The notes under the pieces were generated by a model. The model did no database searches, was not told the DNA's origin, and saw only the letters and a program-made list of their open reading frames with translations. Shown one piece after another: positions 1,502-35,362 of a stretch of DNA of 64,000 nt. Origin of the DNA: Bacteroidales bacterium (lineage in GTDB: Bacteria > Bacteroidota > Bacteroidia > Bacteroidales > FEN-979); NCBI GenBank assembly GCA_963662525.1, contig OY759717.1:1813670-1877669 (forward strand), given 5' to 3'. Numbering within the stretch: the first letter of the stretch is position 1; each line of letters opens with the position of its first letter. The position numbers and the translations under genes are program-made.

Positions 1502-1594
1502 CGATAGGCGCCTGCCGGTAGGCAGGATCTGCGATAAGCGATCTGCGATAGGCGATAGTAACTTTGTTACTTTGTCACTTTGTTACTCTGTCAC
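1502..1594. repeat. Composite short tandem repeat (GCGATAG-type heptamers, a CCTGCC-GGTA-GGCAGG hairpin, TTTGT(T/C)AC octamers)
   Basis: Sequence cgataggcgcc tgccggtaggcagg atct gcgataa gcgatct gcgatag gcgatag taac tttgttac tttgtcac tttgttac tctgtcac. It is a direct-orientation counterpart of 243..285. The stop codon of 1583..1831 lies inside the octamer array. Confidence 0.85.
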
Positions 1595-1831
1595 TTCTTC
1601 TTTCTCTTTCCTTGCATGGTAGAGTTTTTTAGCCCCATAGCCGGCTCCGAGGGCCAGGAGGATTCCCAGTCCGCCATCAATGGGAGCGCCGGCAGGACCC
1701 TGGTTGCCGGTTGAACCATGATCACCCGGCGGGGGCGGTGGGCCGGGAGGATCGGCATGCAAAGGTTGGGTAATAAAGATCGTGCAAACGATGAACGAGA
1801 GGATTGCCAGGGATTTGATTATATTTTTCAT
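1583..1831 (-). CDS. 82-aa secreted or anchored mini-protein: signal peptide, poly-Pro/Gly linker, PIDGG motif with a transmembrane helix and a basic tail (C-terminal sorting-signal-like)
   Basis: MKNIIK... signal peptide, PPGPPPPPG, then PIDGGLGILLALGAGYGAKKLYHARKEK. Paralog at 35114..35362 has an identical 14-aa core encoded with 8 synonymous differences. It starts 33 nt downstream of the giant gene 1865..5275. Confidence 0.75.
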   Translation of the reverse strand: MKNIIKSLAILSFIVCTIFITQPLHADPPGPPPPPGDHGSTGNQGPAGAPIDGGLGILLALGAGYGAKKLYHARKEKEEVTE

Positions 1832-1864: not shown

Positions 1865-4800
1865 TTACTGCACGAATACTTTACCCGAATAGGCCTTCTG
1901 GTTGGTTATGACCTTCACTAGGTAATAGCCGGTAACAGCATCCAGACTGATTTTTGTTAGCGCTCCCTCGTTTAATTTCTGCTGCATCATCTGCTGTCCC
2001 ATGAGGTTGTAAACAAAAACATCGCCTTTAACAATGGTCCCGGTATTATTTGAAATATAAAGGGTGTTGCCGGCAGAATAGATGGTAACGTCATTATCCT
2101 TTTTCGGGTCATTAATCCCCAGTGTTCCGCCGAAATGAAGGTTAAAACGTCCGGGAGAATCATTTACGGAAGCAGCGAACGAATAGGACGGCTCGTTTTG
2201 CAAATTAATTGTTTTTGAAGCCTGGATATCTTCCAGTAAAATGGTAACCGTGGGGAAGAACGTATTTTCCTTCACGCTGATGGTATAATTTTCATCTTTA
2301 CCCACTTTTAACTCAAGCGGGACTACCACTTCGGAGTTGGAATACGGGAGCACATCAATTGAAAGTTCTTCGTCGGAAGCCCGGCAATAAAGCTGGGGCG
2401 CAGCGGCATCGCCATACATCTTGCGAACATCAAAACGACCATCATAAGCGGCTGTTGCTTCATTGTTGAAGTTCACCACGATACCATCCTTATATCCGTT
2501 TCCTTCAACATTAAGCAGAAGAACATCCTGAACTGATTCTGTGGATTTGTAATAAAATTGGGCGTTGTGAGTCCGGGCCGTATTTGGTATGGTAAGGGAA
2601 GCCGCTCCTTCGGCGCTTACCTTGACCCAGAATCCCTGCATGGCAGGAATGATTCCACCAGTCAAAGACCCGATGCTCCCATTCCATGTCAGATATTCGC
2701 CATTATAATACACCCAGATAGAGTTATCGACATTGGTTTTGGTCCAGGTATCTATGCTCCCGTTCAGGGCCGAGGGATAAGGATTTCCTAAGAGATTATA
2801 TCCGGAGCCCTTACCGGTTGTGTAGGATAAAGCAGGAACCGTTCCTGTCCCCGTGGGATAGTCGCCGCTGTTGAGTGTTCCGGCAAAGTCCTTGCTTGCT
2901 CCAGCCGCCCAGGATACAAGATAACCTTTTCCCGGCAGGTAAGAAGCATCGGGGAAGCTTCCACCATTGTCATTCAGCCAGAGGTTGTTTGTTTCATCCC
3001 AGGCATACATATCGGTATATCCGGCGAAAATACTTTGTGAAGAAACCGGCGCCGACATCAGATGCCAGGCCGGACCGGATATCATGCGCGTTATCGTAGC
3101 GCCTCCGCTAACCGTTCCGTTGGTGATCAGGGACCCGCCTTCGTTGATAACAAGGGCGGTATTGTCGCCGGAGTTGGTAAGGGTGCCGGTGACGGTAAGG
3201 GCTGCATCAGAATTAATTGTCAGGCTTCCTGTCGCATTGATGTTCACCGTACCGCCACTGATTGTTTTATTGGAAGTTATATTTACGGCGGAACCACTGT
3301 TAATAACAAGTCCGTTTACTCCCAATGACAAAGTTCCGGCACCACCAATTTCTGCAGTTGCCCCGGAAATAATCCATTGCCCATTAGAAGATTGAGACAT
3401 TGTACCAGTGCCAATAATTCCATTCCGGAATGTTTTAGTACCAGTGCCATTCCATGTGAATGATGAATTAGCCTCAATTTTTCCGTTGATGACTGTTGCA
3501 TTGCTACCTCCCGGTGAGCTAGTCAAAGCTGTTATTCTAAAGATTGGGATTGTATTTACGTCTACATTAGGAAAATAAGTTACTCCAGAGGAGGAAAATG
3601 TCGATGTTGATGTATATTCCAGAATCGAGCCAGTTCCATAGATAAAATTTGCCAAGTTGACACCTGTTCCGTTTCCTGTCATGCCTGTAGTAGAAACCCT
3701 TAAAATTCCATTTGTATTAATAGAACAAGTTGCACTGGAGCTATAAGATGGTGTTGTTGCTGCCAGATTAAATACTCCACCATCATTTATTATAATGTCA
3801 TCTCCGGCTCCATTGTTCACAGTCAGGGTCCCTCCGCTATGTGTTAGCACACCACCTGATTGAATAATAACCTGATCTACTGTAACATTTGCTGTTATAC
3901 TCACAGTATGATCATTTAGGATTGTAATAGAGTTCGCATTGTAGTCAGGAGTTAAAGTGGCATTAATCCAAGGATCATTTCCGTCGGGTGATGATTCCCA
4001 GGTTCCGGTCGAAGCCCAATTTCCAGTTGCTTTGCTTCTGAAATAATCTGTAGCTGATGAGCTGGTTGCAGGAGTTGCGTTTGCTGTAACCCCAGTACTC
4101 CAATTTGTCCCCTTACGGGTAAAAAACGTGTAATAATATTCCGTTCCATTTGTGAGACCTGTTACCGTTTGTGGGGATGTTGTTCCTTTGTAAACCACGT
4201 ATCCACCATCAAAACTAGTGCCCTGAGTGTAAATCAGATCAGCAGTATAAGCCAAGCCATCTCCACTGGGAGTAGCAGTTACAGCGCTACCAGCTTTTGC
4301 AACAATCATGATTTCATCAACGCATCCTGTAGGATTAGCCCACGAAAGAGAAGAAGATCCAGAGATAATACTAGCAGCCTGGCCAGAAACATTGTTTGCT
4401 CCATTAGCAATTTCAAAAACCGAACTGGAAGACCCTGTAATCACAGGAGAATCACAATCAATACGTATTTTGTAACCCGTACCAGATGAAGTGCCTGCCG
4501 GAATTGTAACATCTATGCTGCCGGACGGGTCTGTGCCAGAAACAGATGTTGTACCGATATTTGTTGGTGAGGAAAAATCACCGCTGGCATTGGAAAGATA
4601 TGCCGTAAAAGTTGCCGAAGAATATGTGCCAGTAGTTGTGTATGCTACTGTTCCTGCCGAAGTATTAGTTAAATCAATACAAAAAGGAGGAGAAGAGACT
4701 ATCCCTGTTGTTATAGCATTACCACCAGAAGTAGTTACAGTCCCAGTTAAATTCAGGGTATTATCATTAATTCTCCAAGTGCCGCTTGTGGCCTCAGCCG

Positions 4801-5275
4801 AATAACCGTACCATCTTATCTTTAAAGTTTGTCCTTCCACAACATCAATATCAAGCCCTGTTATATTTCCAGTTCTTTCTTCAGTATTATCAGGGACACT
4901 GACAGTTGCTATTGTATTCGAATTAGAAAAATTATCAATTGACCACCTTACCTGATAATTCCTGATTCCCGTACTAGATCTTCTTTCTCCAAAATTTACA
5001 GCAGAAATTTTAATTATATAACCAGAATTTGGTGTTACAGAAATTTCAAAATATTTCCCAGTATTAATTGCTCCTGTAGACCAATTATCTGCATATGCTC
5101 CGGATGCTCCAAATGTTAGAGTTCCAACCCCTATTGCTGTGAATGCTGTAGCTGTAATATTTTCATTAACCCCCGAGGGATTACCGTTGCTCGTTAATAC
5201 CCAATTAGCAATCTGTCCCCACCCCGTGAAATTCAATGAAAACAATAAAACCAAAAGTAAAAACCACTTTTTCAT
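1865..5275 (-). CDS. Giant secreted adhesin-like protein with a T9SS type-A C-terminal sorting domain (1136 aa)
   Basis: N-terminal signal peptide MKKWFLLLVLLFSLNFTGWGQ. Ser/Thr/Gly-rich Ig/FN3-like segments. C-terminus ...VTIYSAGNTLYISNN...VFVYNLMGQQMMQQKL...GYYLVKVITNQKAYSGKVFVQ is typical of the Por secretion tail. The C-terminal ~480 aa are paralogous to 7617..10907 and 35375..39367. Confidence 0.85.
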   Translation of the reverse strand: MKKWFLLLVLLFSLNFTGWGQIANWVLTSNGNPSGVNENITATAFTAIGVGTLTFGASGAYADNWSTGAINTGKYFEISVTPNSGYIIKISAVNFGERRSSTGIRNYQVRWSIDNFSNSNTIATVSVPDNTEERTGNITGLDIDVVEGQTLKIRWYGYSAEATSGTWRINDNTLNLTGTVTTSGGNAITTGIVSSPPFCIDLTNTSAGTVAYTTTGTYSSATFTAYLSNASGDFSSPTNIGTTSVSGTDPSGSIDVTIPAGTSSGTGYKIRIDCDSPVITGSSSSVFEIANGANNVSGQAASIISGSSSLSWANPTGCVDEIMIVAKAGSAVTATPSGDGLAYTADLIYTQGTSFDGGYVVYKGTTSPQTVTGLTNGTEYYYTFFTRKGTNWSTGVTANATPATSSSATDYFRSKATGNWASTGTWESSPDGNDPWINATLTPDYNANSITILNDHTVSITANVTVDQVIIQSGGVLTHSGGTLTVNNGAGDDIIINDGGVFNLAATTPSYSSSATCSINTNGILRVSTTGMTGNGTGVNLANFIYGTGSILEYTSTSTFSSSGVTYFPNVDVNTIPIFRITALTSSPGGSNATVINGKIEANSSFTWNGTGTKTFRNGIIGTGTMSQSSNGQWIISGATAEIGGAGTLSLGVNGLVINSGSAVNITSNKTISGGTVNINATGSLTINSDAALTVTGTLTNSGDNTALVINEGGSLITNGTVSGGATITRMISGPAWHLMSAPVSSQSIFAGYTDMYAWDETNNLWLNDNGGSFPDASYLPGKGYLVSWAAGASKDFAGTLNSGDYPTGTGTVPALSYTTGKGSGYNLLGNPYPSALNGSIDTWTKTNVDNSIWVYYNGEYLTWNGSIGSLTGGIIPAMQGFWVKVSAEGAASLTIPNTARTHNAQFYYKSTESVQDVLLLNVEGNGYKDGIVVNFNNEATAAYDGRFDVRKMYGDAAAPQLYCRASDEELSIDVLPYSNSEVVVPLELKVGKDENYTISVKENTFFPTVTILLEDIQASKTINLQNEPSYSFAASVNDSPGRFNLHFGGTLGINDPKKDNDVTIYSAGNTLYISNNTGTIVKGDVFVYNLMGQQMMQQKLNEGALTKISLDAVTGYYLVKVITNQKAYSGKVFVQ

Positions 5276-5370
5276 ATATAATATTTTAAAATGTGACGAG
5301 ATATAATTTCTGGAGCGATAAAAATAGGAAGATATTTTGAAATAACGTATTTATTATTTTTGCGTTTGTT

Positions 5371-5890
5371 ACCCACCCCCCGACCCTCCCGGGAAACCGG
5401 GACAAGCTCTCCCTACGAGTAGGGAGGGGGAGTGCCAGGTTCATCCTTAAGCTTTTTCCTGTTTTTAGGGAGGTGTTTTTTTCTGTTGCACTGGCTTTTT
5501 CCATTGGTATAATGTTGGTAAAAGTATGAGTAAATATTTTTTGATATGTTAATGGTGAGTTAAGTTTTTGGTACCCACCCCCCGGCCCTCCCGGGAAACC
5601 GGGACAAGCTCTCCCTACGAGTAGGGAGGGGGAGTGCCAGGTTCATCCCTAAGCTTTTTCCTGTTTTTAGGGAGGTGTTTTTTTCTGTTGCACTGGCTTT
5701 TTCCATTGGTATAATGTTGGTAAAAGTATGAGTAAATATTTTTTGATATGTTAATGGTGAGTTAAGTTTTTGGTACCCACCCCCCGGCCCCCTCCCTACG
5801 AGTAGGGAGGGGGAGTGCCAGGTTCATCCCTAAGCCCCTCCCTATTTATAGGGAGGGGTTTGGGTGGGCACCGAAGGCTTGGGGTGGGTA
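5371..5890 (+). repeat. 202-bp tandem direct repeat: two full units (5371..5572, 5573..5774) plus a diverged third copy that runs into the 3' end of DUF559 gene A
   Basis: Units 1 and 2 differ at only 2 of 202 positions. Each starts with the GC-rich box ACCCACCCCCCG(A/G)CCCTCCCGGGAAACCGGGACAAGCTCTCCCTACGAGTAGGGAGGGGG followed by ~130 bp of AT-rich sequence. Unit 3 (from 5775) lacks the CCGGGAAACCGGG hairpin and diverges after ...catccctaagc. Confidence 0.95.
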
Positions 5891-6245
5891 ACATCCCCCT
5901 GATCTTACCCAGCACCTTTTCCATCTCTCCGATCTCATCATTTTTAAACCGGATAATTTTTATCCCCAATGCCCTGATGTTTCCCTCCCGCCATTGATCA
6001 TAAGTTTTGGCATTATCATGATAAGAGCCGTCGACTTCAACAACAAGTTTTGCTTTCGGGCAATAGAAGTCAGGTACAAAAAAGTTCAGGTCGTTTCCCT
6101 GCCTGTCGTATAGCAGCGGATGCTGACGGAGAAATTTATAACCCTCCAGTTGCCGGTCTTTTAGTTTTGCCCACAATAACTTTTCATACCCGGTTTGCCG
6201 CCGCCGGAGTTTCCGGGATAGTCTTTTTATTTCGACGTATTTCAT
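5796..6245 (-). CDS. DUF559 (Vsr/PD-(D/E)XK-like) endonuclease-domain protein, copy A, with a repeat-encoded C-terminal extension
   Basis: Motifs LWAKLKDRQLEGYKFLRQHP...FFVPDFYCPKAKLVVEVDGSYH...IRFKNDEI are typical of DUF559. The last ~30 aa (PTPSLRCPPKPLPINREGLRDEPGTPPPYS) are read from the GC-rich hairpin repeat. Confidence 0.8.
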   Translation of the reverse strand: MKYVEIKRLSRKLRRRQTGYEKLLWAKLKDRQLEGYKFLRQHPLLYDRQGNDLNFFVPDFYCPKAKLVVEVDGSYHDNAKTYDQWREGNIRALGIKIIRFKNDEIGEMEKVLGKIRGMLPTPSLRCPPKPLPINREGLRDEPGTPPPYS

Positions 6246-6254
6246 TTTGTCCCA

Positions 6255-6304
6255 TTTTCTGCTTAATCCGGGAAAACGGAAAAGGTAATACGTTTGTTGA
6301 AAAG
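6255..6304. repeat. 50-bp dispersed box, copy 1 (TTTTCTGCTTAATCCGGGAAAACGGAAAAGGTAATACGTTTGTTGAAAAG)
   Basis: Near-identical copies at 6848..6902 and 7386..7439. It lies 10 nt upstream (minus-strand sense) of the start of DUF559 gene A. Confidence 0.9.
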
Positions 6305-6352
6305 TTTTTACCTCAGGTCTTTGTAGAATGGTTTTGCCGCGTACTTTGCTTT

Positions 6353-6757
6353 TCAGGCATTTTTCAGGTGGTTTTTGACTGCGTCGCTAATTTTTTTTGA
6401 TACTTTTCTTTCGTTTTTTAATATTTCTTCATTTCTGAAACGGATTACCGTTAATCCGAAATTTTCAAGTTCTGTGGTTCTGTTCAAGTCCTTTTCCTTT
6501 TGTTCTTCCGAATCATGAACAGAGCCGTCAACCTCGATAACCAGCCTGAGTTCATGACAATAAAAATCAACGATAAATTGACTGATTGGGTGTTGTCTGC
6601 GGAAAATAAATCTGTTCAATCTTTTTTTTCTCAATTCCTGCCATAGAATTTTTTCACATAAAGTTGTTCTGTTGCGCAACTCCCTTGCCCTTGCAATTAT
6701 TTCGGGGCTTGCTCCGAAAAAAAACGCCTTTTCAACCGATTTGCCTAAGTATGCCAT
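6353..6757 (-). CDS. DUF559 endonuclease-domain protein, copy B
   Basis: Motifs ILWQELRKKRLNRFIFRRQHPISQFIVDFYCHELRLVIEVDGSVHD...VIRFRNEEI. Paralog of 5796..6245. Confidence 0.8.
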   Translation of the reverse strand: MAYLGKSVEKAFFFGASPEIIARARELRNRTTLCEKILWQELRKKRLNRFIFRRQHPISQFIVDFYCHELRLVIEVDGSVHDSEEQKEKDLNRTTELENFGLTVIRFRNEEILKNERKVSKKISDAVKNHLKNA

Positions 6758-6780
6758 ATATCCTTTATTAGCACATCAAA

Positions 6781-6846
6781 CCTCCTCCCTCCCCCTTGGG
6801 GGAAGCCTGTCCCGGTTTTCCGGGAGGTCGGGGTGGGGTAATCCTC
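6781..6846 (-). repeat. GC-rich double-hairpin box, inverted relative to the copies at 5371, 5573 and 5775
   Basis: The reverse complement (attaccccaccccgacctcccggaaaaccgggacaggcttcccccaagggggagggagg) aligns with ACCCACCCCCCGACCCTCCCGGGAAACCGGGACAAGCTCTCCCTACGAGTAGGGAGGG. Both hairpins are retained: TCCCGG-TTTT-CCGGGA at 6810..6825 and TCCCCC-TT-GGGGGA at 6790..6803. Confidence 0.85.
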
Positions 6847-6847
6847 C

Positions 6848-6902
6848 TTTTTCTGCTTAATCCGGGAAAACGGAAAAGGTAATACGGTTGTTGAAAAAAA
6901 AG
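6848..6902. repeat. 50-bp dispersed box, copy 2
   Basis: tttttctgcttaatccgggaaaacggaaaaggtaatacggttgttgaaaaaaa. It directly abuts the inverted GC-rich box. Confidence 0.9.
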
Positions 6903-6908
6903 TGGCGA

Positions 6909-7052
6909 TCAGCGATAGGTGATAAACGAAACTCCTGACGTTTCAGGGAAATTCTCAATTTGAATAATAATTCGTTTTAGGCTCCTCAAGACGGTAGTAT
7001 CATGGACTTTGTTCAAGGATTTATCAAACGATTTATCAAACTCAACAATCAT
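6909..7052 (-). pseudogene. Truncated RelE/ParE-family toxin (47 codons, C-terminal half missing)
   Basis: Hand translation gives MIVEFDKSFDKSLNKVHDTTVLRSLKRIIIQIENFPETSGVSFITYR*. The ATG overlaps the upstream stop as ATGA. The N-terminal ~38 aa fit RelE/ParE toxins, which are usually 85-95 aa. The reading frame runs into the GATAGGTGAT/GCGATAG repeat and stops. It is below the 60-aa ORF-track cutoff. Confidence 0.6.
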
Positions 7053-7246
7053 TTGCTTTCTAATTTATTCATAATGGACTCACGACTAACACTGTCTCCG
7101 GTCTTAACCTTATCCATAATAATCCCCAAGGCAAGATTCTCGAATTGATCTTCATTAATATTTAAAACATCAGCTCCAAGCTTTTTTGCCAACTCTTTGA
7201 GGATTTTTGTATTTTGATTATCAGCTTTAATAACGATTGCACTCAT
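7049..7246 (-). CDS. Small antitoxin-like protein (65 aa) paired with the truncated RelE/ParE gene
   Basis: MSAIVIKADNQNTKILKELAKKLGADVLNINEDQFENLALGIIMDK... resembles the small Bacteroidota antitoxin-type proteins found upstream of RelE/ParE toxins. It has a 4-nt ATGA overlap with the toxin remnant and its own TACCTTTG box at 7262..7269. Confidence 0.55.
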   Translation of the reverse strand: MSAIVIKADNQNTKILKELAKKLGADVLNINEDQFENLALGIIMDKVKTGDSVSRESIMNKLESK

Positions 7247-7261
7247 GATTGTGTTTTTTTA

Positions 7262-7269
7262 CAAAGGTA
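7262..7269 (-). promoter_or_regulatory. -7 promoter box (TACCTTTG on the minus strand) for the antitoxin/toxin remnant
   Basis: Exact TAnnTTTG match, 16 nt upstream of the ATG at 7246. Confidence 0.55.
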
Positions 7270-7385
7270 CAAATATTCTGAGGGCCATTAATTTTAACTT
7301 TCTGAAGCCAGCGGCTGCAGTTTTGGGAAATCGACTGATTTCAGCGCAGCATACTGAGCGTCGTGCATCCTCTGCTTTCATCATC

Positions 7386-7439
7386 CTTTTTCTGCTTCAT
7401 CCGGGAAAACGGAAAAGGTAATACGGTTGTTGAAAAAAA
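7386..7439. repeat. 50-bp dispersed box, copy 3 (orphan, no DUF559 gene attached)
   Basis: tttttctgcttcatccgggaaaacggaaaaggtaatacggttgttgaaaaaaag. One substitution relative to copy 2. Confidence 0.9.
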
Positions 7440-7474
7440 GCGGGTATCAGCTCCCGGCTTATTTGCCAATTCTT

Positions 7475-7621
7475 GGGAGAAGATGGGAGAACCCAGGGAG
7501 AAGATGGGAGAACTCAGGGAGAACCCAGGGAGAAGATGGGAGCCGGCAGGGAGAATCCAGCGTCACTAATGGGACTTTAATGGGAGGATAATGGGAGGAT
7601 AATTATTCCCTATCGCCTATC
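7475..7621. repeat. Cluster of short tandem arrays: GGGAGAA-based (7475..7556), AATGGGAGGAT-based (7568..7604) and CCTATCG (7609..7621)
   Basis: gggagaa gat gggagaa ccca gggagaa gat gggagaa ctca gggagaa ccca gggagaa gat gggagcc ggca gggagaa; then aatgggacttt aatgggaggat aatgggaggat. The cctatcgcctatc part contains the stop codon of 7617..10907. Confidence 0.9.
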
Positions 7622-10600
7622 TGACCATCACCTTCCCCGAATATGTCTTTTCCGGGGTGATCACCTTTACCAGATAGCACCCGGGGCGGGCATTCAGTTC
7701 GATCTTTGTCAGCTCACTGCCGCTCAAAGGCTGATGAAGGATTTGCTGGCCGAGGAGGGAGTATACCGATAGAGAACCGTTTGATAGAGAAACATTATCT
7801 GTTTGGATAAAAATCTGTTTCCCATCAGAATAGATTACAAGATCGTTCTTATCGGGGGTTTCGGTAATTCCGATAGCACCTCCGAAGTGCAGATAAAACC
7901 TATCCGGATCATCGCTAGTATTGGCAGGAAATGAATAGGATGATTGAAGCATTAAATCCTGGTTCAGATCGTTTTTTTTATCTTCCAGGATAATACTGGT
8001 ACCGGAAGGAAAACTGTTCAGAAAATCAGCAGTCAGGGTATAAGTCGCATCAACACCCGCACTCAGACTAAGAGGAATAGTCTGAGGAGAAGGGATTCCC
8101 CGAAAATCAATAGCGTATTTCTGATCAATTTTTGGCACATACAATCCTGGGGAATAATCATACAGACTGAACCATTTTTCAGCCCCTCCTTGTGAAGTCT
8201 CATGTCCGAACTCAATAATCACTTCATCGGAATAAGGATTAACAGAATTTGTAACCTTCATTTTCAGGACATTGCTTAGTCCTGTAACAGATTTCAAGTA
8301 GGTGGGATTTTGATGTACCCTTACGCTGTTAGTCATTGAAAGAGAACCTTCAGCAGAAGCCTGAACAAAGAATCCTTGTCCGACAGGAACATATCGTGTA
8401 ACACTATTGGTTCCACTTGAAGAAGCGCTGTTAAAGGTACCATAGTTTCCTGCTGCTTCGTTCCAGATCCACATATTGTAACCACCTCCGCTCAAATTCA
8501 GACTTGTTCTTGTCCAACCCGAAGCTGCTTTCCAGTCGATTGCCGAAGGATAAGGATTCCCGATCAGGTTAGAACCTTTATAAGCGTCAGTACCACTGTA
8601 TGATAAATCAAAATCAATCGGTCCATTATTAAGAAGTCCAGTGAATGATTTATTCTGGCTTGTTGCTTCATAAGCAACAAGGTAACCGCGACCGGGAATA
8701 AACTCACTGCCATTGGCAGTGCTAAAAGTGGGTTCAATGGTTGTATTTTTAAAATTTACCCATTGTGAAGTTAGTTCATCCCAACAATAAAAATCATAAT
8801 TGGAACCTCCCGGAACAAACTCAGAACCTGCAATGGCCATTGATACCGGAGAAGAAATCAGATGCCAGGCATTACTTACCCCAGGGATATATCTGTTCAC
8901 TGTGGCTGGAACATAGTCGGAATTGTGAATCAGGGAACCGCTTCCCGTGGCGTCCGAAGCAATGACCAATCCTCCGTTACCAACATTGTTGGTTAAGTTT
9001 CCGTTGACGGTCAGCTGTTTGCCTACCGGAATGTTTAAAGTCTCTCCGGCACCAATGGTGAGGTTCTGAACGGTGGCGTTCTGGCTAATTGTGGTTGTGT
9101 TCGCCAATGAGAAACTCCATGAGGGAGTGGCCAGAATGCTGCTGCTCGTTGTCCAGTTTACAGGATTTGCAATGAATGAACCAAGGGAGTTTATGGAACC
9201 CCCTGAAATTAAATTATAATTACAATTTTGACCAGTGATATTAAGTGCATTAACATTGTCCGTGAGAACAGAAGGCAAATATGATGTATTTGAGGTTGCT
9301 GCACCCGAAGTCAACCAGGATGCATTCCCAAAATTGACGCCAAATAGTAATATCTGGTTAGAATTCCAAGTGCCCTGAAAGGCAAAAAGCTGGTCTCCGC
9401 TGACAGAAAATTGAAATGATCCGGAAACAGCAACCCAATCTCCTGATGCAGAACCGCTTATCCAGGAAATGACTGTTCCCGCGGAGATTGTGGTCGGAGC
9501 AGTATAGGAAATTACTCCTTCCCCAATCCTGCAAGTTGTTGCATTTAAAAACCCATTATCCGTAAAATTAATAACAGTATTGGGGCTTAGTTGTTTTAAT
9601 GTAATAAATGAAAATTTATCAGGATCAGTAGCTCCAGCCTCGATAATTGCGATATCTCCAGCCTGAAGAGAACTCGTTCCAGCTGTCGTTGCCAGTGAAG
9701 TAGTTTGTATGTTGCCATCCGTTTTATAATTGATAGCAGTTCCAGAGTTGGTGTAGGAGTATATTTTAAAGTAATAGGTGGTACTTGCCGATAAGCCAGT
9801 AAAGGTATAGGCTTGTGAACCATAGGGTATGTTTTTATTTAACCCTCCGTCAGTAACTGCAGTGCCATCTGCCGGATCAGTTATTGCTGCAAAACCGCTG
9901 GTACTCCCTTTGATCAGGTAGCCATCCGGGAGCACAGCCCCGGTTGCATCCGTCCAGGTAAGGGCGATGGCATTGTAAGATGGATTCCCTGCACCGGAGG
10001 TATAAGCCGATGGATGGTTGCTGGGTTCTGCCTTTATTCCGCCGGGAGCCCAAACCTCGGTAACGTATTCCTCGTGGTCAATGTATGGATTGCGGTTGTG
10101 TTGTATGGCATACACGGCATTGTTGCGGTCGATTTCCTTGGCCGAAACCGGATCGGATGCATTCCATTCAATAAGCATATTTTTGAACCAGGTTTCAAAA
10201 GCCGGGTAAGAAGTCCCATTGAGGATGGCATCTGCATAAGGATCATTCGCAGGCCAGGAAGCAATCAGGTCCTGGTATCGCGTTGCCATATAAAAGTAAG
10301 CCCGTGCAAAATCGCCTTTGTATTCATCGAGTGGTTCAAATACGGTGCCAGTATAACCAGGATATGAGCAAGTCCCTCGTTTACTGCCATTTTGTGAAGT
10401 ATAAGCTGGGGCAGATACGGTTCCGTAAGGGTAATTGTTATGCCCGGTGCCGTTTACGTACTGGTCAACCGGAAAAAGATGGTGAAGGTCGGTGTACATG
10501 GGGGGTGCACTGTTGAAGTAGCTTTTCGGAAAAGAATGTTCCCTGCTGTAACAGTCACCTTCCTGATAACTGGTTCCACACTGGCTGGTCCCAAGGGTGT

Positions 10601-10907
10601 ATTCATAGGATGGTGTTCCGCCGGGCACATCGGAATACATATCCCATACCTTCCCATTGGGTTTTACATCGGTAGTAAAAAAAGCATTCCATACACCAGG
10701 GGTATAACTTACCGGGGTATGATTGGTTTTGATGATGTTATAGAGCGCCATCTGTAGCTCAGCCCCCGTTTTTCCAATGGCTGCATCATAATATCCCGGC
10801 GGTATCTGTGCAGGTAAGGAATGAAAGAAAAAAAGAAGAAAAATGGCGAGTGACAGGGACCGCGATAAACGCGGAAGAGAAGGGTTGTTAGGGGGAGAAA
10901 TGTTCAA
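7617..10907 (-). CDS. Secreted Endonuclease I-family nuclease fused to FN3/adhesin-like modules and a T9SS type-A sorting domain (1096 aa)
   Basis: Signal peptide. N-terminal region ...CYSREHSFPKSYF...MYTDLHHLFPVDQYVNGTGHNNYPYG...FEPLDEYKGDFARAYFYMATRY matches the Endonuclease I (EndA/Vvn/Bsn-type) active-site blocks. C-terminus LVIYSDGKQIFIQ...LSVYSLLGQQILHQPL...GCYLVKVITPEKTYSGKVMVR is a Por tail. Confidence 0.85.
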   Translation of the reverse strand: MNISPPNNPSLPRLSRSLSLAIFLLFFFHSLPAQIPPGYYDAAIGKTGAELQMALYNIIKTNHTPVSYTPGVWNAFFTTDVKPNGKVWDMYSDVPGGTPSYEYTLGTSQCGTSYQEGDCYSREHSFPKSYFNSAPPMYTDLHHLFPVDQYVNGTGHNNYPYGTVSAPAYTSQNGSKRGTCSYPGYTGTVFEPLDEYKGDFARAYFYMATRYQDLIASWPANDPYADAILNGTSYPAFETWFKNMLIEWNASDPVSAKEIDRNNAVYAIQHNRNPYIDHEEYVTEVWAPGGIKAEPSNHPSAYTSGAGNPSYNAIALTWTDATGAVLPDGYLIKGSTSGFAAITDPADGTAVTDGGLNKNIPYGSQAYTFTGLSASTTYYFKIYSYTNSGTAINYKTDGNIQTTSLATTAGTSSLQAGDIAIIEAGATDPDKFSFITLKQLSPNTVINFTDNGFLNATTCRIGEGVISYTAPTTISAGTVISWISGSASGDWVAVSGSFQFSVSGDQLFAFQGTWNSNQILLFGVNFGNASWLTSGAATSNTSYLPSVLTDNVNALNITGQNCNYNLISGGSINSLGSFIANPVNWTTSSSILATPSWSFSLANTTTISQNATVQNLTIGAGETLNIPVGKQLTVNGNLTNNVGNGGLVIASDATGSGSLIHNSDYVPATVNRYIPGVSNAWHLISSPVSMAIAGSEFVPGGSNYDFYCWDELTSQWVNFKNTTIEPTFSTANGSEFIPGRGYLVAYEATSQNKSFTGLLNNGPIDFDLSYSGTDAYKGSNLIGNPYPSAIDWKAASGWTRTSLNLSGGGYNMWIWNEAAGNYGTFNSASSSGTNSVTRYVPVGQGFFVQASAEGSLSMTNSVRVHQNPTYLKSVTGLSNVLKMKVTNSVNPYSDEVIIEFGHETSQGGAEKWFSLYDYSPGLYVPKIDQKYAIDFRGIPSPQTIPLSLSAGVDATYTLTADFLNSFPSGTSIILEDKKNDLNQDLMLQSSYSFPANTSDDPDRFYLHFGGAIGITETPDKNDLVIYSDGKQIFIQTDNVSLSNGSLSVYSLLGQQILHQPLSGSELTKIELNARPGCYLVKVITPEKTYSGKVMVR

Positions 10908-25496: not shown

Positions 25497-28439
25497 TTAT
25501 TTAGTTAATATAAGTGAATAGGAAACTTTTTCACCGGATTTAAAATATAAAGTAAGAAGATAGTTGCCGGACGAGAAGAAGGAGAGGTCGACAGATAGTT
25601 TATCCCCCTCGGGTTTTATCGATGAACGGTATACCGTTTTACCCATCTGGCTTGTCACGGATATGTTTTGCAGATCCGCCTGCATTCCTTCATCCATCCT
25701 GATTTCAACCTGCCCTTTGGTGGGATTGGGGAACAGGTGGATTTTGGTTTTCAGCTTGTTCTCTATATTGGTCGGATTCCCAAATCTGGCTTCAAGATTA
25801 CGGTTTCCCTGGGCAATGAATGTCAAGTTGGCGGAATCACTAATCTTCGTTCCGTTTTCGAACCAACCCGTGAATGAGAAGGATTTCAGGGGTGTGGCCG
25901 CCATGGCGACTGTATCTCCGATCTTGTAAAGTCCGCCGCCGCTGGCATCTCCGCCATTTCTCGGCACTTCAGTTTCATTCACCTTGATCTTTCCCGAGGG
26001 TACATACATATCCGATTCCCATATTCCTCTTCCATAAGTGGCGGCGCGGATGGTTCCTGCCATATAACAAATGTCCAGGTCTGTTACCATCACATTGGGA
26101 AGTTGGTTGTTGAACGGAATCCAGTTAGAAAGGGTTGAGTCACGGTAAAAAACACCAAGATCGGTCCCGATGTAGAGCGCATCATTGGAGAAATCCTCAT
26201 AAACAATGCAATTCACCGGCACTTTTGGCAAGTTGGTACCCGAAATGTCTTTCCAGCTTTCGCCTCCGTCAATGGTACTGAATACCTTTAAGGAGTCATA
26301 CCCGGAGAAGGCGACAAACACCTTTTTTGGATCTGTTGGATGAATTGCTATTCCCGTGATCATGTTTTTGTTCTTGCCCAGGGCAGTCAGCTTAAGCGTG
26401 TCAATGGCTTTCATATTTCCCCCCCCGTTGGTGGTCATGTAGAGGCTTTTCGCGGTACCCGCCCAGATCACTTTCGGATCATATTGGGAAATGGCCATGG
26501 TCCTGAACTGGAAATCGCCCGGAACTTTGTGATCCATCCTGGTGATACTGTCCCACTTGTTACCCCGGTTGGTTGTTTTCCAGATATCCCGGTATCCTGC
26601 ATAAAGAATTTCAGGATTGATCGGGTCGATGGCAATGGGAGTGATCCAGGAACCTCTGTTTTTGCTTTTGATACTGTCGGAAATCAACGTACAGTCCTCT
26701 TTCCAGGTACCGTTAAGGGTTCTTTTGATGACTCCATCAGAATAGCAGGCATACCTGATATTCGGATCAAGCCAGTCGATCAGGCAGTCCATCCCGTCGC
26801 CCCCGATGGCATCAGGAGTCAGCCACTCACCCGGAGCGGTGCGCACCTGTGAACCATTGTCCTGGAATCCGGCAATGATCAGATCTTTCTCCTCCCAGGA
26901 GCCTCCGATACGGTAAATCTGCCCGATCTGCATTCCTCCGGAGATATCAATCCACTTTTTCCCCCCATCCTGTGTATAATAAACTCCTCCGTCGTTACAG
27001 TCGAAGAATGTCCCTTTTTTCAGTGGATGAAAGGCAAAGGCATGCTTATCAGCATGGACCTGTTCCAGATTTATCGGTTCAACACTTTTTTCCCAATAAC
27101 TGGCAAGGTTGAATTCCCTTCCTCCGTCGGTGCTTTTCCAGGTGTTGATACCGCCCAGCCAGCGGATGTTGAGAGAATCGGGGTCGATCATATAGCACAG
27201 GTCATACCAGCCTTGTCCGCTACATGCATCATTGTACATTTCGGGATCGACGTAACTGTGCAGATAATTGTTGCTACAGTTTTTATACACTTTTACAACA
27301 GTATCCCCAAAGGAGGCTCCGTCACTTATTGACCTGAATATCCCGGCCAATCCACCATACACGGAATCCAGTACGCACAGCGCTTCGACCATGCCGGGTT
27401 TTTTAGGTGTCACTGCCAGCTTGATCCTATTGATGTTGGTGAATTTTGTCACCGAATCCCAGCTTTTTCCCCAGTCGACTGACCGGTAGATCTGGGCTGA
27501 TCTTTTATAGGATGATTTTGTTGCAGCATACATAGTTTTAGTTGTGCCTGGCTTGTAAACTATGTCGCAGAAGTTTAATGTAGGCCCCACCGAAACAGTA
27601 TCCTGCCCTCCATTCATCAGCTTGTAAATGCCGCATGACGTCGTTGCAAACAGCATGCTGCTGGTGTCGGGATTCATGATCAGCCTGCTTACCTGATACT
27701 CTTTATCCTTGCCGGTTTCAAAGCTCAGACCTGTCTTTTTCCAGGTCAATCCGCCATCAATCGATTTCAGGATGCCGAGGCTTTTCGTGTCACCTGAACC
27801 TGTCCCGTTAAATTTGTTATCTCCTCCGTCGTAATCTCCTGTAGCGAGGTACATGGTATTTGAATTTTTCGGATCGATAACGATCTCGCTGATGCCAAGA
27901 ATGGGCTGGCGGTCAAAATTTGTAGTCCAGGTTTTACCGAAGTCGGTGGTTTTCCACAACCCTCCCGCAGGGGTTCCTGCCCAAAAAGTGTTGATATCGT
28001 TTGGATGAAAGGCGATACAGTTAACCCGGCCTACCCCAAAGTAACGGTTCTCAGGTTTGTCGGGACCCAGGGACTTCCAGTTACCCGCTGCATCTGAATT
28101 ATCCGTTGTATGTTCGGCGGAATACTTTTCCCACTCCTTAACAACCACATTGTTCGGGGGGAATGTCCCGTCATGATTGATGCGGGCTTCCCAGTACCAC
28201 TCCCAGCGTTTGAAAGGTTTATAGCCTGATCCTCTGGTAACCTCCCGTCCTTTCCAGTAATCATTGAAATTTTTTTGTATCTGGTAGAAATTCGCTTTAG
28301 CCGGCGTTGTTGCGGCACCGGAAGGGGCCTGGGCAGAAGCTGATTGCCGTGCTGTGATCAGGGCAAAAAACAAGCTGATTGCGGGAAGGAGCAGCCATGT
28401 CTTGCCCGTTAAACATTTTGTGGTATATTTTGTTTTCAT
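25497..28439 (-). CDS. BNR/Asp-box repeat beta-propeller protein (sortilin/VPS10- or GH74-like) with a T9SS sorting domain
   Basis: Multiple Asp-boxes (TTDFGKTW, SIDGGLTW, RSVDWGKSW, STDGGREF, TQDGGKKW, TTNRGNKW, TIDGGESW). C-terminus IHLFPNPTKGQVEIRM...GNYLLTLYFKSGEKVSYSLILTK. It starts 2 nt after the stop of 28442..28876, and its stop is 10 nt upstream of the start of the C10 gene. Confidence 0.8.
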   Translation of the reverse strand: MKTKYTTKCLTGKTWLLLPAISLFFALITARQSASAQAPSGAATTPAKANFYQIQKNFNDYWKGREVTRGSGYKPFKRWEWYWEARINHDGTFPPNNVVVKEWEKYSAEHTTDNSDAAGNWKSLGPDKPENRYFGVGRVNCIAFHPNDINTFWAGTPAGGLWKTTDFGKTWTTNFDRQPILGISEIVIDPKNSNTMYLATGDYDGGDNKFNGTGSGDTKSLGILKSIDGGLTWKKTGLSFETGKDKEYQVSRLIMNPDTSSMLFATTSCGIYKLMNGGQDTVSVGPTLNFCDIVYKPGTTKTMYAATKSSYKRSAQIYRSVDWGKSWDSVTKFTNINRIKLAVTPKKPGMVEALCVLDSVYGGLAGIFRSISDGASFGDTVVKVYKNCSNNYLHSYVDPEMYNDACSGQGWYDLCYMIDPDSLNIRWLGGINTWKSTDGGREFNLASYWEKSVEPINLEQVHADKHAFAFHPLKKGTFFDCNDGGVYYTQDGGKKWIDISGGMQIGQIYRIGGSWEEKDLIIAGFQDNGSQVRTAPGEWLTPDAIGGDGMDCLIDWLDPNIRYACYSDGVIKRTLNGTWKEDCTLISDSIKSKNRGSWITPIAIDPINPEILYAGYRDIWKTTNRGNKWDSITRMDHKVPGDFQFRTMAISQYDPKVIWAGTAKSLYMTTNGGGNMKAIDTLKLTALGKNKNMITGIAIHPTDPKKVFVAFSGYDSLKVFSTIDGGESWKDISGTNLPKVPVNCIVYEDFSNDALYIGTDLGVFYRDSTLSNWIPFNNQLPNVMVTDLDICYMAGTIRAATYGRGIWESDMYVPSGKIKVNETEVPRNGGDASGGGLYKIGDTVAMAATPLKSFSFTGWFENGTKISDSANLTFIAQGNRNLEARFGNPTNIENKLKTKIHLFPNPTKGQVEIRMDEGMQADLQNISVTSQMGKTVYRSSIKPEGDKLSVDLSFFSSGNYLLTLYFKSGEKVSYSLILTK

Positions 28440-31327: not shown

Positions 31328-32641
31328 TCAGAAGGCGTCTTTCAGACATCGCACGGAAAACCCCTGGCTCCTCAAGGTTTTTAACCGGTAAACCCCGGTA
31401 TCAGCACTATTCATGGATCGAAACCAGGAGATGGTATCGGATTGGGTGCCGGTCCAGAAAAGCCCATAGTTGCCTGCCCGGATAAAGCCTCCATGGGTAT
31501 TTCTATAGCCCCCCGGCAACGCGGTGAAACCGCTTGCATTGCTGCCGTTGCCTTCATAGTTCCATCCGGTGGAAGACTTCAATAACTTCCCTATCCCTCC
31601 GGAATTCCGAAGGTAGACAGAATCTGCCTCGTACCAGCTCATCCCGAGGTTGGTTTCTAAAACTTTCCATTCTTCATCATATGGAATGTGCCAGCCGGAA
31701 GGACAAACGCCACGGTATCGGTCTTTGACGCCTTTTTCTTTTTCTGGTTCAAGGATGGCAGCCGGCCAGTTGTATAGCGCACCATATAAGGTATAATTCA
31801 GTGTGGCTTTGGCTGCTGATACGATGGTATCTTCATAACCATAAACATAAAAATGCCTGAGAGAATCGGAACCTGTCGTCGATGCACTTACTTTTGGCAA
31901 CCAGGCAAGATTTTCTGCCATCCAGGTCTGATTTCCGATATGGACGATGGCATAATTTCTGCCATCGGGATCCTGGCAAAGCTCGAAATCAACTGTATAA
32001 TTTTTTGAAACCGTAGGAGAATCTGTGACTATGGTTGTGTAGATATCACCCCTGCAGCGATACAGGATGATGTCGCCCGCTGTATATCCCAATGTGTAAA
32101 GCGCAGTTCCTTTCAACAGAGGTGATTGTTCAGACCCCGTTGAAGTTCCATTGAAGCGGATTGTATTTCCATTGCCGGATGTTTCCATACAGATGACTTT
32201 ATGGCTTTCCGTGCCGTGTAACGTACTGATGCTGACAAGATACACCCCTGTTTTGGAAACGGTGATTGAAAATGTTTGGAAACCGGCATTGACCGTGGTC
32301 CGGGTACTTGCCAGCAATTGCCCGGTAAGATTTCGCATCTCCAACGAAACCTGCTGAGCCTCCGGAATGCTGACGGCAAGGTTGGTTATTTCCTGGAAGG
32401 GATTCGGGAAAACGATTCCCTGCTGATTAAGGTTTTTATGGTCATAGATTCCTGTATTTTTTGATAGAACCAGGGTGTCATTGCCTGGCAGGGTGATACT
32501 TTCATTGGTCCGGAGGTTGGTGGCTTTTATGGAATCCACCTTACTGGCGGCCCCGATAGCAGAAAAGGTCATATTCAGATTTTGTCCGTAAAGGATCACG
32601 GGACTCAATACCCATAGCATAAGTATGTATATTTTTGACAT
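31328..32641 (-). CDS. FISUMP (Fibrobacter succinogenes major paralogous) domain protein with an internal Por-tail-like Ig domain
   Basis: C-terminal half IGNQTWMAENLAW...YGALYNW...CPSGWHIPYDEEWKVLE...GFTALPGGYR...GFSVRCLKD is FISUMP-like. Residues ~76-152 (VFPNPFQEITNLAVSIP...VSLEMRNLTGQLL...GVYLVSISTLHGTESHKVI) resemble a T9SS type-A domain but are not C-terminal. Confidence 0.75.
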   Translation of the reverse strand: MSKIYILMLWVLSPVILYGQNLNMTFSAIGAASKVDSIKATNLRTNESITLPGNDTLVLSKNTGIYDHKNLNQQGIVFPNPFQEITNLAVSIPEAQQVSLEMRNLTGQLLASTRTTVNAGFQTFSITVSKTGVYLVSISTLHGTESHKVICMETSGNGNTIRFNGTSTGSEQSPLLKGTALYTLGYTAGDIILYRCRGDIYTTIVTDSPTVSKNYTVDFELCQDPDGRNYAIVHIGNQTWMAENLAWLPKVSASTTGSDSLRHFYVYGYEDTIVSAAKATLNYTLYGALYNWPAAILEPEKEKGVKDRYRGVCPSGWHIPYDEEWKVLETNLGMSWYEADSVYLRNSGGIGKLLKSSTGWNYEGNGSNASGFTALPGGYRNTHGGFIRAGNYGLFWTGTQSDTISWFRSMNSADTGVYRLKTLRSQGFSVRCLKDAF

Positions 32642-34241: not shown

Positions 34242-35117
34242 TCAGAACCTTACCCTGATGTTTCCGGCCGCCCATATCAGCAGCAATGCAATAGCGACTG
34301 ACAAAATCCGGATACGGCTGGTGAAGATCTGCTTATCCGACTTCCTTATCCTGGGTTGAAACCGGATTACCGGATCGTCAACCAGGATGATGGCCATATA
34401 CCCCAGACTGATTAAAAAAGCAGGCCAGAACAAGTTCGTAAACGGCCAATTGAAAGCCATAAGTATAACCACACCCAGGATCCAGGGTCTGAGGAAAACG
34501 GCAAGGAAATATGACCGCTGTGCTTCCGGGCTCTTAAAAAATGCCAGCGTAAAAACTGTTTTAAGAAATTGGAAGTACCAGAAGCGGCTGGTGATGACCA
34601 GCACGACCAGGACCAGCAACGCCAATATTCCCCTGGAAACAAGGGAATTCAGCATCCACATATAGGCCACGCCGAAACCATCATAAAGCATAGTCCCTGC
34701 CAGGATGCTACAAGGGAAGGCATTCACCATCAAAAAACACATCCAGGTCAGAACAAGTTTGGTTTTCCAACCAGTCATGCTAAGATTTTTCATAATAAGT
34801 AAAAGGGCCACTCCTCCTATAGACATCAGCAAGGGGCCTGAACCAAAAACCAGCATGATCATTTCTTCAGACCATTTGGCGCCGCTTTCCGAGAAAAAAG
34901 AAAGATGGAAAAGGCCGTAGCTGAAGTGGATGTCAAAATAATTAAGGAGGATCATCAACCAGGCACATAGCAGGAATTGCATGAGCAGGGCTGAAAAAAT
35001 GAATATCACCGACGAGAACAGACTCAGTTCACGCAGGGAATGCTTTGACAGGGGCCCTTCAGCGGGTCTGCGTTTGCGTCGTTGGGGATAGAACATCCAG
35101 ACAAAGAGCGGTTTCAC
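34242..35117 (-). CDS. Uncharacterised polytopic (about 7 TM) membrane protein, overlapping the stop of the upstream mini-protein gene
   Basis: About seven hydrophobic helices. No recognisable family motif. The GTG start at 35117 overlaps the TGA stop of 35114..35362 (GTGA). An alternative ATG lies at 35096. Confidence 0.6.
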   Translation of the reverse strand: MKPLFVWMFYPQRRKRRPAEGPLSKHSLRELSLFSSVIFIFSALLMQFLLCAWLMILLNYFDIHFSYGLFHLSFFSESGAKWSEEMIMLVFGSGPLLMSIGGVALLLIMKNLSMTGWKTKLVLTWMCFLMVNAFPCSILAGTMLYDGFGVAYMWMLNSLVSRGILALLVLVVLVITSRFWYFQFLKTVFTLAFFKSPEAQRSYFLAVFLRPWILGVVILMAFNWPFTNLFWPAFLISLGYMAIILVDDPVIRFQPRIRKSDKQIFTSRIRILSVAIALLLIWAAGNIRVRF

Positions 35118-35362
35118 TTTTCCCTTGCTTCAGGTTTTCCTTTTGTTTTTTTTCTGGACTTGAAGAGTTTCTTACCGCCATAGGCAGCGCCCAGGGCAAG
35201 CAGAATGCCGAGTCCGCCATCGATGGGCCCGCCAACCGGACCATCGCTGCCCCCACCTCCGGTACGCGCATTACCAGGAGGAGGAGGAGGAGCCTGAGCC
35301 AATGCCGAAATACCAACACTTATTAAAACAGCAATAAACAGGATTTTGATGATGTTTTTCAT
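35114..35362 (-). CDS. 82-aa mini-protein, paralog of 1583..1831 (signal peptide, PPPPPG, PIDGG-TM-basic tail)
   Basis: MKNIIKILFIAVLISVGISALAQAPPPPPGNARTGGGGSDGPVGGPIDGGLGILLALGAAYGGKKLFKSRKKTKGK.... It starts 12 nt downstream of the stop of the giant gene 35375..39367. Confidence 0.75.
   Translation of the reverse strand: MKNIIKILFIAVLISVGISALAQAPPPPPGNARTGGGGSDGPVGGPIDGGLGILLALGAAYGGKKLFKSRKKTKGKPEAREK

Follow-up and report, generated by a model that had tools for sequence, protein, structure and literature searches.

The C-terminal signals of the PEP-CTERM/exosortase, GlyGly-CTERM/rhombosortase and PGF-CTERM/archaeosortase systems consist of a tripartite C-terminus behind a Sec signal peptide, are present in several copies per genome, where they are attached to a wide range of unrelated passengers, and are accompanied by a polytopic enzyme that has been identified. 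A further class, PID-CTERM, exists as curated models (NF046080 and PF28310) that describe a motif, a hydrophobic segment and a C-terminal basic cluster. Among giant type IX secretion system (T9SS) adhesins, those with a type B C-terminal domain (CTD) depend on a cognate SprF/PorP-like partner encoded immediately downstream (PMC12618676; bioRxiv 10.1101/2024.01.29.577165), with roughly one partner per cargo, which in the known case is required for both secretion and anchoring (PMC12618676). Among adhesins of the RemA type, which carry a type A CTD, a role as mobile cell-surface gliding adhesin is known only for Flavobacterium johnsoniae RemA (PMC10994853, PMC12618676), and cryo-electron microscopy of RemA and RemZ resolved the CTD alone (PMC10994853). 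Here, we analyzed a stretch of 64,000 nucleotides (hereafter the window) from contig OY759717.1 of a Bacteroidales bacterium (assembly GCA_963662525.1), in which two genes for 82-residue mini-proteins of the PID-CTERM family each lie directly behind the gene for a giant RemA-like adhesin. The mini-protein is probably a dedicated, co-transcribed genetic partner of this adhesin type.

The mini-proteins resemble the PEP-CTERM, GlyGly-CTERM and PGF-CTERM signals in the tripartite C-terminus, the signal peptide and the number of copies per genome, but show a single architecture instead of many unrelated passengers. They share the motif, hydrophobic segment and basic cluster of the PID-CTERM model, except that here this "domain" plus its signal peptide and 25-residue linker amounts to the whole protein, and no other passenger was found in 1.22 Mb of related DNA or among the best 150 of 3348 cluster representatives. 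With regard to gene order, the adhesin and mini-protein pairs are similar to SprB-SprF and GhpA-GhpB/C, in which a cognate partner gene is also found directly downstream of a giant T9SS adhesin. PorP/SprF-like partners may be regarded, by analogy, as the nearest functional counterparts, although they are outer-membrane beta-barrels of ~300 residues that serve type B CTDs, have no homology to the mini-proteins, and differ from single-helix proteins of ~80 residues located behind type A CTD cargo.

Mini-proteins and RemA-like adhesins as gene pairs

A preliminary description of the window, made from the sequence alone, had reported two loci with an 82-residue open reading frame (ORF) behind a giant T9SS gene, and the coordinates, sequences and spacers were as described: mini-protein 1 lies 33 nt and mini-protein 2 lies 12 nt downstream of its giant gene. 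Both mini-proteins begin with MKNIIK, and in both of them PIDGGLGILLALGA precedes xYGxKKL and a tail of Lys, Arg and Glu residues. The 14 codons of PIDGGLGILLALGA differ between the two genes at nine third positions (not eight, as first counted), and all nine differences are synonymous, with no non-synonymous change. Both giants scored above the curated cut-off (23 bits) of TIGR04183, which models the type A sorting domain of T9SS cargo, with 23.8 bits for adhesin 1 and 27.0 bits for adhesin 2, in agreement with their proposed status as T9SS cargo.

We found that this arrangement was not limited to the window. A scan of species-representative genomes with the pattern P[VAI]G[AG]PIDGG identified 78 loci with 82 mini-protein copies, all 72-102 residues in length. 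A large ORF on the same strand was located just upstream of 79 of the 82 copies, mostly ending 9-60 nt away. In their last 110 residues, 73 of 77 upstream neighbours matched TIGR04183, compared with 21 of 148 control ORFs that were randomly drawn from the other ORFs of at least 250 residues in the same loci. An iterated search with the C-terminal region shared by the two window giants then revealed a module of ~400 residues that immediately precedes the CTD. It was present in 74 of 78 upstream neighbours, compared with 8 of 365 other ORFs; two of these eight were frameshift fragments of a true neighbour, and one was then followed by a divergent mini-protein. This stalk module, rather than the CTD, distinguished genes with a mini-protein from those without: a mini-protein was found downstream of 77 of 83 stalk-bearing genes and of none of the 18 other genes with a C-terminal CTD in the same loci (Fisher p = 3.6e-15). 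Thus, the suggested link between mini-protein and neighbouring giant is real and very strong, and the enrichment expected behind T9SS cargo holds for cargo with the RemA/RemZ-like stalk but not for T9SS cargo in general. Similarly, no mini-protein was present in the window behind the two CTD proteins that lack the stalk module, encoded at 25497..28439 (Sortilin and Por_Secre_tail) and 45475..46896.

The association was also observed in the reverse direction. Of eight distant homologues of the stalk, chosen on long contigs as starting points, seven had a mini-protein of 74-91 residues 16-46 nt downstream, several of these with degenerate motifs and without a PF28310 flag. In addition, pairwise distances between mini-proteins correlated with those between stalks (70 pairs; Mantel r = 0.68, none of 2000 permutations as high), and the same was true for paralogues within a genome (r = 0.66, p = 1e-7). 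Mini-protein and stalk have therefore been inherited and duplicated as units, and species phylogeny is not the sole source of the correlation. The pairing with RemA-type adhesins is almost one-to-one, specific, and fixed in the order adhesin, then mini-protein. A mini-protein that is simply the detached C-terminus of the giant, arising by frameshift or read-through, could be dismissed, since the mini-protein has a conserved ATG and a signal peptide of its own and the spacers vary in length and frame.

The two giants of the window are 31% identical (E 5e-44) over their C-terminal ~470 residues only, and their N-terminal adhesive parts are unrelated to each other. A profile of the module plus CTD matched F. 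johnsoniae RemA (8gl6_D) in one stretch (residues 924-1435, E 9.6e-50, 172.8 bits) and RemZ (8gl8_D) over ~500 residues (E 6e-47), and the alignment of the stalk with RemA and RemZ contained common GNPYPSA, QGFF, FYK and DRFxLxF motifs. The first half of the module also matched the C-terminal part of Porphyromonas gingivalis Mfa5 (6to1_A, E 6.5e-25). A single stalk sequence found no match among the Protein Data Bank (PDB) sequences, and a profile is needed to detect the homology to RemA and RemZ. As judged from these profile comparisons, the window giants are homologues of RemA and RemZ in their C-terminal ~500 residues; the last ~490 residues comprise the stalk and type A CTD, and the N-terminal adhesive parts are unrelated to those of RemA and RemZ. 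An AlphaFold2 model of the adhesin 1 module (mean predicted local distance difference test score, pLDDT, 87.8), built like the other model reported here with alignments of database homologues, was an all-beta string of beta-helix-like and beta-sandwich domains followed by the CTD, and the modelled CTD superposed on that of RemA with a template modelling score of 0.81. Foldseek searches with the module model returned generic multi-domain Ig/FN3-like matches and CTDs only. A stalk that forms an outer-membrane barrel was ruled out by this model.

Architecture, conservation and limits of the family

Both mini-proteins passed the curated cut-off of NF046080 (PID_CTERM, 25 positions; 36.3 and 35.4 bits, respectively; cut-off 26), and precomputed annotation of a protein collection labelled them PF28310:PID_CTERM. 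Hence, the PID-CTERM class that had been named in the preliminary description exists, and comparison of both peptides with NCBIfam sorting-domain models confirmed the assignment. A Pfam release older than PF28310 gave no match to either mini-protein, a match to PFE_CTERM was weak and below threshold (E 0.2-0.6), and a mini-protein profile had no match among PDB sequences. The window mini-proteins are ordinary members of an already curated family whose proteins are named "hypothetical protein" in the source records. Our literature search found no paper describing PID-CTERM, PF28310 or PIDGG in the sense of this family. That the family consists of mini-proteins only and is tied to the RemA/RemZ-like stalk, as opposed to T9SS cargo at large, was stated in none of the papers searched (curators' descriptions were not covered).

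The family is large. A profile of the two window proteins identified 1949 clusters at 90% identity (E<=0.01), and a profile of 36 members identified 3348 cluster representatives at 50% identity (E<=1e-3), 579 of them below 1e-10. Conserved homologs with a PIDGG motif and transmembrane (TM) segment, which had been sought across genomes, were therefore abundant. All but two or three of the 78 loci were labelled Bacteroidota (metagenome-assembled genomes, MAGs, of Bacteroidales, Prolixibacteraceae and Draconibacterium); the remaining loci belonged to two unclassified "bacterium" MAGs and to one 1.7-kb contig binned as Geobacteraceae. Several mini-proteins may be present per genome, with at least six copies in two MAGs.

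Every member seen was a stand-alone protein of about 75-100 residues, and no large protein carried the tail. The best 150 of the 3348 representatives were 62-112 residues in length and matched from end to end, except for two tandem fusions and one protein whose N-terminus was probably over-extended. Likewise, a hidden Markov model (HMM) of the PID-TM segment (motif, helix and basic segment) matched only mini-proteins among all ORFs of at least 40 residues in 1.22 Mb of loci plus the window. The expectation for a sorting signal, i.e., one tail on many passengers, was thus not borne out, which makes the tail unlike a portable sorting tag. In the two tandem fusions, P0156 (155 aa) and P0187 (146 aa), two whole mini-proteins are arranged head to tail in one ORF, and the second signal peptide directly adjoins the basic cluster of the first. 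If these ORFs are genuine, one of their two PID-type segments, the first, lies inside the protein, a poor fit to a strictly C-terminal sorting signal.

The family consensus begins with MKK and a hydrophobic signal peptide with small-x-(A/S) at its end, followed by D or Q and by xPPPPPG; a stretch rich in Gly (HGxGGNQ or GGGGGG), PxGAPIDGG, LGILLAxGAAYGG, KKLYxARKxK and an acidic tail complete the protein. Within the proline run, P31, P32, P34 and P35 are conserved at >=0.9 across the family. The residue after the predicted signal-peptide cut is D, Q, E or N, mostly Asp, and the -3/-1 rule is met; in mini-protein 2 the signal peptide probably ends at ..SALA|QAPPPPP. Each mini-protein has two hydrophobic segments, with 0-1 basic residues in the linker and 5-10 in the tail, and an acidic extension of 5-20 residues is present after the basic cluster. 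The proposed layout (signal peptide, Pro/Gly linker, motif, hydrophobic segment, basic cluster) therefore holds by inspection, hydropathy and charge counts, from which the topology was assigned.

Selection was estimated as the ratio of non-synonymous to synonymous substitutions (dN/dS; Nei-Gojobori method) over 53 moderately diverged homologue pairs. The overall value was 0.19, and the PID-TM segment was most constrained (0.05), followed by the linker (0.13), signal peptide (0.34) and tail (0.46). Synonymous sites were saturated (dS ~1.5 in the PID-TM segment and 0.9 overall). In the PID-TM segment of the window pair, the proportions of synonymous and non-synonymous differences (pS and pN) were 0.59 and 0.06. 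The mini-proteins are real protein-coding genes under strong purifying selection, as had been argued from the window pair alone, and values near 1 were not observed.

In contrast, the motif turned out not to be invariant. Invariance of the P[VAI]G[AG]PIDGG columns in the set of 78 loci is by construction, and hits free of this bias showed PIG, PIS, PLG, PVG and PLD variants of PID. Mini-proteins behind distant RemA-like genes (L086:4972-5208, L087:5131-5358, L090:4072-4305, L091:1582-1806 and 4348-4575, and L092:3953-4189) had APIGSG, APIGGG, APLDGG or APVGSG where other members have PIDGG, and most lacked the PF28310 flag. Since several of the paired relatives with PIG, PVG or PLD are not flagged by PF28310, the natural family is wider than the curated model.

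Surroundings of the two loci

Coordinates of the window features are listed in Table 1. Adhesin 2 likely starts at the ATG at 39367 (MKHRILL...).

Table 1. Positions of the mini-proteins, adhesins and other elements in the window
Feature	Position	Strand	Description
PID-CTERM mini-protein 1	1583..1831	minus	82 aa
Mini-protein 1, signal peptide	1754..1831		aa 1-26
Mini-protein 1, Pro/Gly linker	1685..1753		aa 27-49
Mini-protein 1, PIDGG + hydrophobic Gly-zipper segment + KKLY	1619..1684		aa 50-71
Mini-protein 1, charged tail	1586..1618		aa 72-82
RemA-like T9SS adhesin 1	1865..5275	minus	1136 aa
Adhesin 1, N-terminal ~660 aa			variable
Adhesin 1, stalk module	2099..3292		aa 662-1059
Adhesin 1, type A CTD	1868..2098		aa 1060-1136
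PID-CTERM mini-protein 2	35114..35362	minus	82 aa
Mini-protein 2, PIDGG..KKLF core	35162..35227		aa 46-67
RemA-like T9SS adhesin 2	35375..39367 (ORF open to 39409)	minus	1330/1344 aa
Adhesin 2, stalk module	35615..36805		module HMM E 1.7e-138
Adhesin 2, type A CTD	35378..35614
Third RemA-like cargo	7617..10907	minus	Endonuclease_1, fn3, stalk module (E 7.6e-111), CTD (E 4.7e-23)
Polytopic membrane protein	34242..35117	minus	291 aa; GTG start overlaps mini-protein 2 stop (GTGA)
Tandem duplicate	5332-5735		202 nt, 91% identical
70-nt element	5409, 5611, 5792		3 copies
60-nt element	6247, 6841, 7380		3 copies
GGGAGAA-type micro-repeats	7464-7548		10/11 nt

The gene that follows mini-protein 2, to which the GTGA overlap couples it translationally, encodes a polytopic membrane protein of 291 residues without any Pfam or NCBIfam match. 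Its family comprises only 35 homologue clusters and the gene was found in about 3 of 80 loci; where it occurs, the order adhesin, mini-protein, membrane gene is kept. The AlphaFold2 model was helical (pLDDT 78.8) and had no match in the PDB by Foldseek (best E 0.44), and no invariant catalytic-type residues (Cys/His/Glu/Arg set) were seen in the family. On the grounds of its few clusters, rare occurrence, lack of a catalytic signature and lack of a known fold, we rejected this protein as a general sorting enzyme. In the locus of P0139, only 5 nt separate the end of a gene for a 1851-residue protein from a homologue of the membrane gene, and no separate mini-protein was called between them; here the mini-protein could be fused to the giant, or a small gene could have been missed. 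The gene after mini-protein 1 encodes an AAA_14/DUF4143 ATPase. In the vicinity of the two window loci we saw no gene of the exosortase, rhomboid or CPBP type, and promoter and terminator scans around both loci gave results at chance level.

The third RemA-like cargo resembles a surface-displayed nuclease (Endonuclease I plus fn3) placed on an adhesin stalk. A mini-like ORF was sought downstream of it in 6700..7617 and none was found. Repeated intergenic elements are dense at 5332-7548 and interleave with two genes for DUF559 endonuclease-like proteins (5796..6245 and 6353..6757); this stretch also contains a small overlapping gene pair of 65 and 47 aa (7049..7246 and 6909..7052). The position of the repeats downstream of the only stalk-bearing gene in the window without a mini-protein suggests that an insertion may have displaced or destroyed it. 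Elsewhere in the window, the product of 31328..32641 (minus strand) has Por_Secre_tail at residues 77-150, close to its N-terminus, and Fib_succ_major at 233-434. This unusual, non-C-terminal T9SS CTD may reflect a mis-called start or a fusion.

Possible roles of the mini-proteins

The almost invariable position directly behind one family of giant adhesins makes the mini-protein a probable dedicated partner of these adhesins. With regard to function, our preferred explanation, to which we assign slightly less than even confidence, is that it acts as a membrane-anchored adaptor or tether, specific to this cargo family, in adhesin handling before or at T9SS export. The precursor would be exported by Sec and cut by signal peptidase I before the conserved Asp or Gln, giving a product of ~55 residues with a polyproline/glycine segment of ~25 residues in the periplasm. 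The short glycine-zipper helix (GGLGILLAxGAAYGG) would span the inner membrane, and, according to the positive-inside rule, the KKLYxxRK cluster and acidic tail would remain in the cytoplasm. The near-invariant helix may dock to a membrane component common to all paralogues, and the more variable linker (and tail) would go with the stalk of its own adhesin. Later cleavage of the tail is left open by the adaptor or tether model.

Several points weigh against this explanation. First, 6 of the 83 stalk-bearing genes, including 7617..10907, have no mini-protein. Second, the localisation of the mini-protein, cleavage of its signal peptide and its contact with the adhesin are deduced from sequence features. 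Third, the most conserved parts are the motif and helix, not the periplasmic linker that would recognise cargo, and such conservation is at least equally compatible with recognition by a shared enzyme, as for a true sorting signal. Fourth, the hydrophobic segment of ~15 residues is short and of moderate hydrophobicity (mean Kyte-Doolittle value ~1.5), which is typical of cleaved C-terminal sorting signals. Finally, a tether of 25 residues in the inner membrane is unable to accompany the adhesin to the surface, and it is therefore not obvious what is gained from having one mini-protein per adhesin. It is more doubtful, and in our estimate rather unlikely, that the mini-proteins represent a new class of T9SS accessory, in which one small cognate anchor or adaptor would serve each RemA-type (type A CTD) adhesin as a counterpart of PorP/SprF. 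In the boldest form of this proposal, the tail would be processed and the Pro/Gly peptide would become an envelope-anchored acceptor for covalent attachment of the adhesin by PorU.

The strongest competing explanation is the one behind the curators' name, namely that the mini-protein is a true C-terminal sorting substrate. The two alternatives of the preliminary description, a minimal sorting substrate and a tail-anchored tether dedicated to the adhesin, thus remain in the lead. A dedicated intramembrane enzyme (exosortase-, rhombosortase- or archaeosortase-like) would cut at or near P-I-D and move the Pro/Gly peptide of ~25 residues to a lipid or glycan, and the anchored peptide would be the functional product; most boldly, its free N-terminal amine would accept the adhesin, linked to it by the T9SS sortase PorU after CTD removal, in a manner similar to sortase A and the pentaglycine bridge. 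We consider this possible but on balance unlikely. It is consistent with the tripartite layout of motif, short hydrophobic helix and basic cluster behind a signal peptide, with the passing of a curated PID_CTERM sorting-domain model, and with the finding of at least six copies in two MAGs that share one near-invariant motif and helix, as would be expected for many substrates of one enzyme. The Gly-rich linker and the mostly Asp residue at +1, which would leave a free amine, also fit the acceptor version, and Gorasia et al. (2015) reportedly described that peptide amines can receive cargo from PorU when anionic lipopolysaccharide (A-LPS) is missing. On the other hand, the tail is carried by no other passenger, either in the 1.22 Mb or among the best 150 of the 3348 representatives, and distant partners with unchanged gene pairing have PIG, PVG, PIS or PLD at the site of PID. 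The acidic extension of 5-20 residues behind the basic cluster is unusual for such signals. No enzyme candidate was present in the neighbourhoods, where the sole linked membrane protein is the rare 291-residue protein without catalytic-type invariant residues. Moreover, the mature N-terminal residue in the mini-protein 2 subfamily would be Gln, which in Bacteroidota may be expected to cyclise and block the amine, and we know of no route by which the anchored peptide could leave the inner membrane and reach the cell surface.

An accessory that serves T9SS cargo at large or the secretion machine itself, not specific to this adhesin family, would agree with the type A CTD of 73 of 77 upstream neighbours, but is contradicted by the absence of mini-proteins behind all 18 other CTD genes in the same loci, as well as behind the two stalk-less CTD genes of the window, as against their presence behind 77 of 83 stalk-bearing genes; besides, a machine component would be single-copy and not present once per adhesin gene, and we regard this role as very improbable. 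Just as remote is a regulatory or chance ORF, either a PPPPPG ribosome-stalling trailer that tunes operon expression or mRNA stability or a spurious ORF within a 3' region that is itself conserved: despite the conserved PPxPP run and the tight coupling to the upstream gene, it was rejected because the strongest constraint falls on the motif and helix and not on the proline run, because signal peptide, helix and charge pattern are kept at the protein level while synonymous sites are saturated, and because there is usually nothing downstream to regulate, given the scarcity of the membrane gene.

The mini-proteins bear on the question of how RemA and other adhesins with a type A CTD stay on, or leave, the surface of Bacteroidota, RemA itself showing both anchored and released behaviour (PMC12618676). 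With thousands of clusters, a fixed position and co-evolution with the stalk, the mini-protein is a concrete candidate for the missing partner of RemA-type adhesins. Our observations also call for caution with the database label "protein-sorting domain", which rests on architecture, given that the "domain" was approximately the whole protein in every case seen. If the mini-proteins do form an accessory class, this would explain surface retention of type A adhesins in bacteria that do not use A-LPS, and the curated PID-CTERM family would widen to AP[ILV][DG][GS]G variants. The gene itself was already catalogued, and what its genomic context adds is a direct way into the handling and retention of type A adhesins.

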